DNA of 63,300 nt, the filler included, from Reclinomonas americana ATCC 50394 (lineage: Eukaryota), in NCBI GenBank assembly GCA_048213135.1. It is 17 parts of 17 records of this genome, joined end to end, with 100 filler letters (N's around TTAATTAATTAA, not from the genome) between each part and the next. Parts side by side here need not be neighbours in the genome. Positions count along the whole stretch, not along the records: positions 61,245 to 63,300 come from AFZH01022168.1; 16 more parts are not named here. One strand, written 5' to 3'. Below the pieces are notes generated by a model. The model did no database searches. It was not told the origin of the DNA and saw nothing but the letters and a program-made list of their open reading frames with translations. The position numbers and the translations under genes are program-made. Shown in pieces: positions 61,245-63,050 of the stretch. Each line of letters opens with the position of its first letter. Position 1 is the first letter of the stretch.

Positions 61245-62620
61245 TTTGTGGAGCAGCCAATGGCCGCACTCCGTGTGGTCTCTCGTCTGTGGGAAGCGCT
61301 GGCGCACCCCGACTTGCCGGCTGCCTATCGCGTTGCGTCTCCACTCGCACCTGCGCGTCGCCAGTGTTGTCACCGCTGTCTTACTTTTTTGGCGCACAGT
61401 TCTATGTGACCGAGGCGACAAAGACGCTGGAGGAGTGCGTGGACTGGGCACGCAGGCATGCCTTTGCGGCCGTGGTGCCGCAAGTTGCCTTTGACGCCAG
61501 CAACCCCGTACATCGACAACTGGTGGTCTCGGCGGCGGCGTTGCGCGCGTACACGTGTGGTCGCCAGTTCACGCCCGTGGACGAGGCGTTCCGCCAGCGC
61601 GCCTTTGAGGTTCTGCAGTCGTCTGTGGCGGCTGGAGAAGGACAAGGAGTAGACGCGGCCGTTGCCGAGGAGTTGCCGAGTGTGGAAGCCATGGCGGCGG
61701 AGGTGGAGCGCTCGGCCGCAGACATGCAGGGTCAGTACTTCCCGCGCCCGCTGATGGCCACATTGCGTGCGGTTTCCATGTCGGACGGCGCTGTCGGAGG
61801 CTTCCTTGCCGCCGCCGCTGCACTCTCCGCCGATGGATCCGTCACCTCACTGGAGATTGGCGGCAGTCTGGCTGCCGTCGGTCGTGCCCTGCACGTGTCA
61901 CCGCGTTGCGCGGCCTTGAACACGATTGCTGCCGGCGTGGCTGCTGGAGAGGTGCTCAAGATTCTGCTGCGCTCTCCACTGGAGGAGTCGCGTCGCACGA
62001 CGTTTGAGAGGACACAATTCAAGTCGGACAGCGTGCTACCCGCAGCGCCAGTTGCGTCTCCTCTGTGCACATTCGTCGTGTGGGGGGAGAGTACAGTTGG
62101 CTGAGTCTTGGTGTTGTGCAGATCACACTGGGCGCACAGCCGGGCCACACTGCGTGGTCGGTCGTCGAGCTGCCGGTGAGTCGAGTGGTGGACTTTGTGG
62201 ATCACCTGCGTCGTGAATTCGGCCTGGTGGCTCGAGGTACGTGATGCGCCAGCCTTGTTTGCAGGCAAAGGCTTACTCTTGTGTGTTCGACAACAGAGAT
62301 CAAGTACCGCACGTATGTGTTGTATCCGGCCGGGCCGGCCGATGCGGATGAAACGTGAGTCTTCCTTGGTGAAGCGATTGTTGTGTGCAATGTGCTCACG
62401 CGAGATTGCAGTTTTGTGCAGGCATTTGCGCGCACCTTTGCACCGATGCCAGCCGGTCGGGTGTTTGATGTGCAGCTTAACTGGTGCGGAGGAGGGAGCA
62501 TAGTACTGTGATGGCAAGGTGCTTCTTGGTGGTTGACCCCGCCTCCGCGCAGCGTGTCAGCCGAGGATGAAGCAACTCGCGTCGTCAATCTGCCTATTTT
62601 CCGCCTCGCACTCGCAGCCG
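61245..62620 (+). CDS. Divergent ubiquitin-activating enzyme E1 (UBA1-like) C-terminal half including the UFD domain; 5' partial
   Basis: TLEECVDWARR, FDASNPVH..LVVSAAALRA..G, PRCAALNTIAAGVAAGEVLKIL, TAWSVVEL..VVDFVDHLRREFGL..VLY and VQLNC..EDE..VVNLPIFR match the order of UBA1 motifs. Confidence 0.75.
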
Positions 62621-62692
62621 GTTTCGTGTCTCACGATGCTCTTCTCCCGCCTGCTACCTCGTGTGTCTCATTCGTGTTGTTCACCTCGCCAG

Positions 62693-63050
62693 CGGACATC
62701 TCCAAGCAGATGCAAACGGCGGCACCGCTGGGTGGCTTTGGTGACCGCTTCAACGGTATCATTGTGAAGCAGGAGACGCCGTACCCCGACACTGCCGAGG
62801 AGTTTGGTGTACTGCTCGACGAGTCGCTGCGCGTGTGGGAGCGAGAGCACCGCCGAGTGGCGTGGATTCATGTGCCGATCGGCAAGAGCCACGTGATTGC
62901 ACCAGCGGCGGCAGTTGCGTGCATGTTTGTGTCGCTCTCTCGCGCGCGCGGCGTGTAACACCTGTTGTGCGCAGCGTGGATTCCGCTTCCATCACGCACT
63001 GGAGGATCACTCTGTGTTGATGAGATGGCTGGCTCCTGGACTCTGCAAAG
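62693..63050 (+). CDS. NUDT6/plant NUDX2-like Nudix hydrolase N-terminal domain, in frame with the upstream E1-like exons; 3' partial
   Basis: DRFNGIIV...EEFGVLLDESLRVW....RVAWIHVPI....IAPAAA-RGFRFHHA..DHSVLMRWL. Confidence 0.85.

Follow-up and report, generated by a model that had tools for sequence, protein, structure and literature searches.

The last contig of the 63,300-nucleotide stretch of Reclinomonas americana ATCC 50394 analyzed here (referred to below as the window) covers positions 61245-63300 (2056 bp) and carries, on its plus strand, a chain of exons in which a region resembling the C-terminal part of a ubiquitin-activating (E1) enzyme continues in frame into the start of a NUDT6-type Nudix hydrolase. 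The contig opens inside the gene at its 5' end and closes in a GA-rich microsatellite at its 3' end; the DNA has 56% G+C, and the source eukaryote has short GT-AG introns. We rebuilt the exon chain from the DNA, using open frames and GT-AG splice sites (Table 1). All exon joins on the E1 side are in phase, every intron has GT at its 5' end and CAG at its 3' end, and the spliced exons 62122-62236, 62297-62354, 62412-62483, and 62553-62620 read ...DVQLN-C-VSAEDEATRVVNLPIFRLAL. A first-pass annotation of this DNA had described the exons of 62122-62620 as splicing in phase with no stop after them, and the rebuilt chain bears this out, with GT-AG introns of 60, 57, and 69 nt. Approximately 360 codons of E1-like exons contain neither a frameshift nor an in-frame stop and, at the DNA level, one uninterrupted reading frame passes through both the E1-like and the Nudix parts. 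We put it at an even chance that the locus represents a real, single fusion gene, with an E1-like C-terminal region followed by a NUDT6-type Nudix start, which, if real, would constitute a new domain architecture made from two known families.

The downstream part begins with ADISKQ, followed in the first Nudix exon by the segments GDRFNGIIV and WIHVP. This exon matches the NUDT6-type Nudix N-terminal domain of Pfam (PF18290) with E-values of 1.3e-11 and 9.9e-12, passing the cut-off of 26.5 bits. The second Nudix exon follows a 61-nt intron, reads RGFRFHHALEDHSVLMRWL (including RGFRFHHA) up to a GTATGT donor at 63051, and supplies profile positions 57-80 of 80, the last 24 of the domain (E 2.5e-5). 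A phmmer search of the PDB with the Nudix exon returns the N-domain of human NUDT6 (3fxt, E 2.3e-5) and Arabidopsis NUDT7 (4zb3, E 0.02). At the level of these profile and chain matches, the identity as a NUDT6-type Nudix N-domain is secure, in agreement with the first-pass annotation, whose four peptides for this region (ADISKQ, GDRFNGIIV, WIHVP, and GFRFHHA) are also correct in sequence and position when the sequence is rebuilt. The Nudix box, which has the consensus GX5EX7REUXEEXGU, would be located in one or more missing downstream exons; a regular expression for this consensus gives low-complexity matches only across the window. Neither the Nudix exon nor the open reading frame (ORF) at the junction has relatives in a word-based homologue search, the junction ORF has no usable neighbor in a language-model search (Atlas), and comparison of the Nudix exon with viral contigs yields one 14-residue match (L001), taken as chance.

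The upstream part was assigned from its large exon at 61400-62074. First, Pfam places UBA_E1_SCCH on this exon at E 0.0015 and 19 bits versus a cut-off of 21, with residues 30-72 aligned to profile positions 116-158 of 254. Second, six of the seven rows shown for its Atlas neighbors are E1 families (SCCH, UFD, and ThiF) at scores of 0.81-0.84, to be read against a lead level of 0.9 and against a third of shuffled proteins that also give 10 of 10 matches in one clan. Third, UBA3, UBA1, or UBA6 chains make up 13 of the 44 listed Foldseek rows, including rank 1, all at E 0.34-2 and none significant; the query was an AlphaFold single-sequence model with a mean predicted local distance difference test (pLDDT) score of 43, too poor as a structure, so that these rows serve as a lead only. 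Taken together, these lines suggest with high probability that the upstream part is E1-like. The earlier label of a UBA1-like E1 survives in this form, as an E1-like assignment by three weak lines, none of which reaches significance. An exhaustive phmmer search with the 235-residue E1 exon found 0 matches among 1.84 billion representatives, the word-based homologue search returned nothing for it, and no match was seen to viral contigs; NCBIfam gave 0 families for five of five pieces.

The exons that follow had been read in the first-pass annotation as the UFD domain, with RLAL as the natural C terminus of an E1. This assignment is not confirmed: Pfam matches E1_UFD (PF09358) on none of the exon ORFs, searched singly at 19-39 residues each, and phmmer finds no E1 chain in the PDB for three of three exons tried (62122-62236, 62412-62483, and 62553-62620). 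The order of segments from the large exon to RLAL may be collinear with UBA1 up to the last strand. The Pfam match begins at profile position 116 of 254, and the region that would contain the SCCH cysteine lies off the contig; regular expressions for adenylation-domain motifs find none elsewhere in the window. The CobW/COG0523-type gene of the same window scores normally (E 1.5e-20), and the divergence therefore belongs to the E1-like gene and not to the lineage. Judged by its sequence, this gene is a divergent paralogue and not housekeeping UBA1, and it may be non-catalytic.

Between the two parts, the E1-like/Nudix frame contains no stop from 62509 to 62956 (the coding frame is open over 62512-62955), and all three plus-strand frames are open over 62571-62741. 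The segment at 62621-62692 runs from GT to CAG and measures 72 nt; hence, the frame is kept whether this segment is spliced or retained, as had been claimed. Its length is just over the 47-69 nt of the contig's six other introns. As a null for the open 33-codon spacer, we generated 20,000 composition-preserving shuffles, of which 50% stay open in frame and 9% in every one of the three frames. By itself, an open spacer has no significance; the telling point is the total absence of a stop in the upstream gene.

Codon usage was scored as log-odds after training on 1761 codons from seven hand-picked ORF pieces on other contigs of the window, with the CobW/COG0523-type and WD40 genes serving both in this training and as a check on the divergence of the lineage. 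The exons on the E1 side score +0.29 to +0.56 bits/codon in frame and below zero in almost every other frame; among all exons, the short second Nudix exon, of 25 codons, departs from the positive in-frame scores, at -0.17. Within 62621-62692, the three frames score -0.10, -0.20, and +0.05, and a sliding score stays below zero over 62632-62691, rising from 62686, ahead of the ATG at 62710. The six codons of 62692-62709 reach 5.3 bits. In a comparison set that is a small sample, none of 254 intronic windows (from six introns on this contig) scores as high, against 0.7% of 438 windows read off frame and 14% of 219 windows read in frame in the large exon. Since the coding signal returns at the acceptor, before the ATG, an intron joining both parts is favored over a Nudix start at the ATG, and the codon-usage profile favors one spliced gene across the junction.

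Table 1. Features of the E1-like/Nudix locus and of other contigs in the window
Feature	Position	Strand	Basis and remarks
Partial upstream exon of the E1-like gene (VEQPMAAL...PAAYR)	61248-61331	+	Open frame, codon score +0.39 bits/codon; truncated by contig start
Intron	61332-61399	+	68 nt, GTTGCG...CAG
Large exon, 225 codons, E1-like: later SCCH-type part and sequence after it	61400-62074	+	Codon score +0.37 in frame, -0.32 off frame
Intron	62075-62121	+	47 nt
Exon ITLGAQPGHTAWSVVELPVSRVVDFVDHLRREFGLVAR, the first one previously read as UFD	62122-62236	+	In-phase GT-AG splice, codon score +0.29; no family or PDB match
Intron	62237-62296	+	60 nt
Exon EIKYRTYVLYPAGPADADE-T	62297-62354	+	In-phase GT-AG splice, codon score +0.39
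Intron	62355-62411	+	57 nt
Exon FVQAFARTFAPMPAGRVFDVQLN	62412-62483	+	Codon score +0.56; no PDB match
Intron	62484-62552	+	69 nt
Last E1-like exon C-VSAEDEATRVVNLPIFRLALAA, without stop codon	62553-62620	+	Codon score +0.35; no PDB match
Candidate intron or linker GTTTCG...GCCAG	62621-62692	+	72 nt, 71% pyrimidine, open in all frames
Nudix exon 1: (A)DISKQ, ATG 62710, NUDT6-type N-terminal domain	62693-62913	+	PF18290, codon score +0.52
Intron	62914-62974	+	61 nt
Nudix exon 2 RGFRFHHALEDHSVLMRWLAPGLCK, end of PF18290 domain	62975-63050	+	PF18290, E 2.5e-5
GTATGT donor, then GA-rich microsatellite to contig and window end	63051-63300	+	Sequence; Nudix box must be beyond
Artificial contig joiner N44-TTAATTAATTAA-N44	61145-61244	.	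One of 16 identical linkers; studied contig begins at 61245
STAND/NLR-like multi-exon gene	57817-61143	-	Preceding contig; P-loop GLAGVGKSAF, TPR_12
CobW/COG0523-type GTPase	1089-1757	+	PF02492, E 1.5e-20
WD40 beta-propeller protein	21507-22400	-	Ordinary conserved gene

Other endings and other genes at the locus were also weighed. An E1-like protein that ends by retention of the intron at 62484-62552 (WCGGGSIVL, stop at 62509-62511) is disfavored because this tail scores -0.74 bits/codon while the next exon scores +0.35. In Blastocystis, stops can be made by polyadenylation, with the motif TGTTTGTT. A stop of this kind was rejected here: the motif occurs three times in the window versus 1.87 expected, 30 of 100 shuffles reach three, and none of the three matches falls within the contig at 61245-63300. 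Antisense genes on the contig were likewise set aside, the minus-strand ORFs at 61735-62556 and 62762-63298 scoring +0.04 and -0.12. As a separate observation, the AG at 62708-62709 is a possible alternative acceptor for the donor at 62621, whose use would shift the frame and lead to a stop at 62742-62744 after 11 codons. Speculatively, this acceptor could let the locus also produce the E1-like protein in unfused form.

What stands of the E1-Nudix fusion put forward in the first-pass annotation is the continuous frame, the Nudix start, and the codon profile. Several points weigh against it. The putative fusion is read at the DNA level from one 2056-bp contig of a fragmented assembly, and one wrong base might be enough to mask a stop at the junction. 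The donor GTTTCG at 62621 is the least canonical among the donors of the contig, and the ATG at 62710 stands 9 residues ahead of the Nudix N-domain and could begin a stand-alone protein. Every line of E1 evidence is below significance (the Pfam match is sub-threshold, the Atlas scores are under the lead level, and the Foldseek E-values come from a low-confidence model), and neither the 235-residue exon nor the C-terminal exons tried retrieve an E1 from the PDB by phmmer. The catalytic parts are off the contig at both ends, with the adenylation domains (which would be upstream of 61245) and the catalytic cysteine on one side and the Nudix fold and Nudix box, beyond the GA repeat end, on the other. 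A second instance of the architecture is also lacking, as homologue, viral, and metagenome searches returned no relatives for either half, although word-based relative searches are weak evidence of absence; the metagenome contigs recovered were two only (L002 and L003), with chance word matches in long prokaryote- or phage-type ORFs otherwise unlike the query.

The alternative that survives best, which we nevertheless consider unlikely, is that two ordinary genes lie side by side, with the E1-like stop just after RLAL lost to an error in base calling or assembly or to a mutation particular to the strain, and with the Nudix protein starting at ATG 62710. The contig is tiny and the assembly fragmented and rich in microsatellites, a single substitution would turn any of several codons in 62612-62691 into a stop, an open spacer of 33 codons is expected half the time at this composition, and ATG 62710, the sole in-frame ATG in 62554-62913, lies just ahead of the Nudix domain. 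Two such genes would, however, have to fit a 3' untranslated region (UTR), a promoter, and a 5' UTR into a gap of approximately 100 nt, and the six codons ahead of the ATG look coding. An indel is unable to create a stop at the junction because all three frames are open there. Known poly(A)-signal hexamers, which may differ from the organism's own signal, were not found in 62500-63060, and no repeat, as a sign of a mis-join, was found in common between the E1-like/Nudix junction and the rest of the window (the other 61 kb).

It is quite improbable, in our view, that the Nudix gene alone is functional, expressed either from a start of its own or through trans-splicing of a spliced leader onto the CAG acceptor at 62692, and that the E1-like exons belong to a decaying second copy whose stop, and possibly also its 5' half, is gone. 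The extreme divergence of the E1-like part (0 of 1.84 billion representatives, no PDB E1 by phmmer) is consistent with such decay, and it contrasts with the normal scores that the CobW gene and the Nudix domain obtain in this window. Trans-splice acceptors have the look of a pyrimidine tract and CAG upstream of an ATG, and the sequence before ATG 62710 resembles this, but trans-splicing in this organism is hypothetical. Phase is kept across all introns, codon usage is of coding type and equal to that of the Nudix exon, and the E1-like codons are free of frameshifts and in-frame stops; the intact phase and the coding-type codon usage would not be expected in a decayed copy. Very unlikely, finally, is a single gene encoding a Nudix protein whose upstream part is an N-terminal extension peculiar to this lineage, with a chance likeness to E1. 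This reading would account for the lack of an E1 match at any curated or statistical threshold and for a UFD reading that matches nothing in the searches, but is opposed by three methods of different kinds (Pfam, Atlas, and Foldseek) that all indicate the E1 family and no other, and by the SCCH profile positions 116-158 of 254, which fit the place of the exon ahead of the C-terminal exons.

The surroundings of the locus in the window are largely the product of concatenation. The window comprises 17 contigs with 16 identical N44-TTAATTAATTAA-N44 linkers between them (16 sites, 2892-61244), which contain stops in all six frames. Because these linkers join separate contigs, any neighborhood that spans one of them is artificial. 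This applies to the STAND/NLR-like gene on the preceding contig, for which TPR_12 is clear (2e-11) and AAA_16 (3.5e-4) and nSTAND6 (0.006) are both below cut-off. The first-pass annotation had seen in its adjacency a hint of a defense or signaling module; the linker at 61145-61244 separates the two, and no inference of a defense module is possible because the adjacency comes from concatenation. Long purine/pyrimidine microsatellites (GA/CT and CA/GT) are very common in the window, at 63060-63300 and at many other contig ends and in introns, with examples at 5584-6966, 8257-9357, and 14598-16249 that translate as SLSL, PFPF, or HTHT runs. Their abundance is probably the reason for the fragmentation of the assembly.

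Compared with known systems, the locus shares with E1 enzymes of the UBA1/UBA6/UBA7 type (ThiF PF00899, UBA_E1_SCCH PF10585, and E1_UFD PF09358) the sub-threshold match in the middle of the SCCH domain, the dominance of E1 families among the Atlas neighbors, and the E1 share of the Foldseek rows. Its divergence far exceeds that of any housekeeping UBA1, with no phmmer match in the PDB or the 1.84 billion representatives, and it differs further in having no UFD detected in single-exon searches and no stop after the expected C terminus. With human NUDT6 and Arabidopsis NUDT2, NUDT6, NUDT7, and NUDT10, the locus has in common the PF18290 N-domain, including the DRF-G and FHHA segments. In the PDB chains of NUDT6 and AtNUDT7, the aligned domain starts at approximately residues 24-34 of a free N terminus, whereas the locus has more than 360 in-frame codons before it. 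Fusions of E1-type enzymes are known in Uba4/MOCS3, in which a rhodanese domain at the C terminus follows an E1-like adenylation domain, and in bacteria as JAB-E1 and as the E2-E1 protein Cap2. These provide precedents for a second catalytic domain, carried on an E1-type enzyme, that acts on the adenylation product; they differ in that the partner is a rhodanese, JAB, or E2 and not a Nudix domain and in that they are short E1s of the ThiF/MoeB type without SCCH or UFD. Our literature searches turned up no account of a Nudix domain fused to an E1 or to a ThiF protein. A review of the Nudix clan (PMC5389931) nowhere uses the terms ThiF, ubiquitin, or fused, and the parts of a beta-grasp survey that mention both families describe no fusion between them (PMC1949818).

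If the two parts do belong to one gene, then the contig would represent the 3' part of a multi-exon gene in which the C-terminal region of a divergent UBA1-type paralogue is joined to a Nudix hydrolase of the NUDT6/AtNUDT7 type, either directly or via a linker of approximately 20 residues. With 62621-62692 as an intron, RLALAA would be joined to ADISKQMQ. A Nudix module placed behind the last E1 domain might cleave an adenine-nucleotide pyrophosphate that arises at the adenylation site or close to it, with the diadenosine polyphosphates Ap3A and Ap4A, side products of the adenylation of ubiquitin-like proteins (Ubls), or ADP-ribose and NADH, as for AtNUDT7, as candidate substrates. Both functional premises of the first-pass annotation find a basis in the literature, with one passage listing ubiquitin-activating enzymes among the makers of Ap4A, a dinucleoside polyphosphate (PMC10399197, which cites Gotz et al. 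2019), and another reporting that AtNUDT7, from a Nudix subfamily with ADP-ribose/NADH pyrophosphatases, hydrolyzes NADH and ADP-ribose (PMC3095304). We regard it as possible, though tentatively, that this protist has a true bifunctional E1-Nudix protein that couples Ubl adenylation to the hydrolysis of Ap3A/Ap4A or of ADP-ribose/NADH. Alternatively, because the E1-like part is so divergent, it could act as a non-catalytic scaffold that takes the Nudix enzyme to a Ubl or to an E2.

Should the junction prove to be an artifact of assembly or annotation, the locus would merely contain a divergent E1 paralogue beside an ordinary Nudix gene. If the fusion is true, it would be the first known to us in which a Nudix hydrolase and a ubiquitin-type activating enzyme are combined. 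Fused genes frequently point to functional partnerships, and this one would serve as a "Rosetta stone" that ties ubiquitin-type activation to the turnover of alarmones or ADP-ribose. It would suggest that enzymes of the NUDT6/AtNUDT7 class, whose cellular substrates are still debated, may remove nucleotides formed as by-products when Ubls are activated or may act on ubiquitin chemistry linked to ADP-ribose, an idea that is testable in better-studied organisms in which the two activities are encoded by separate genes.

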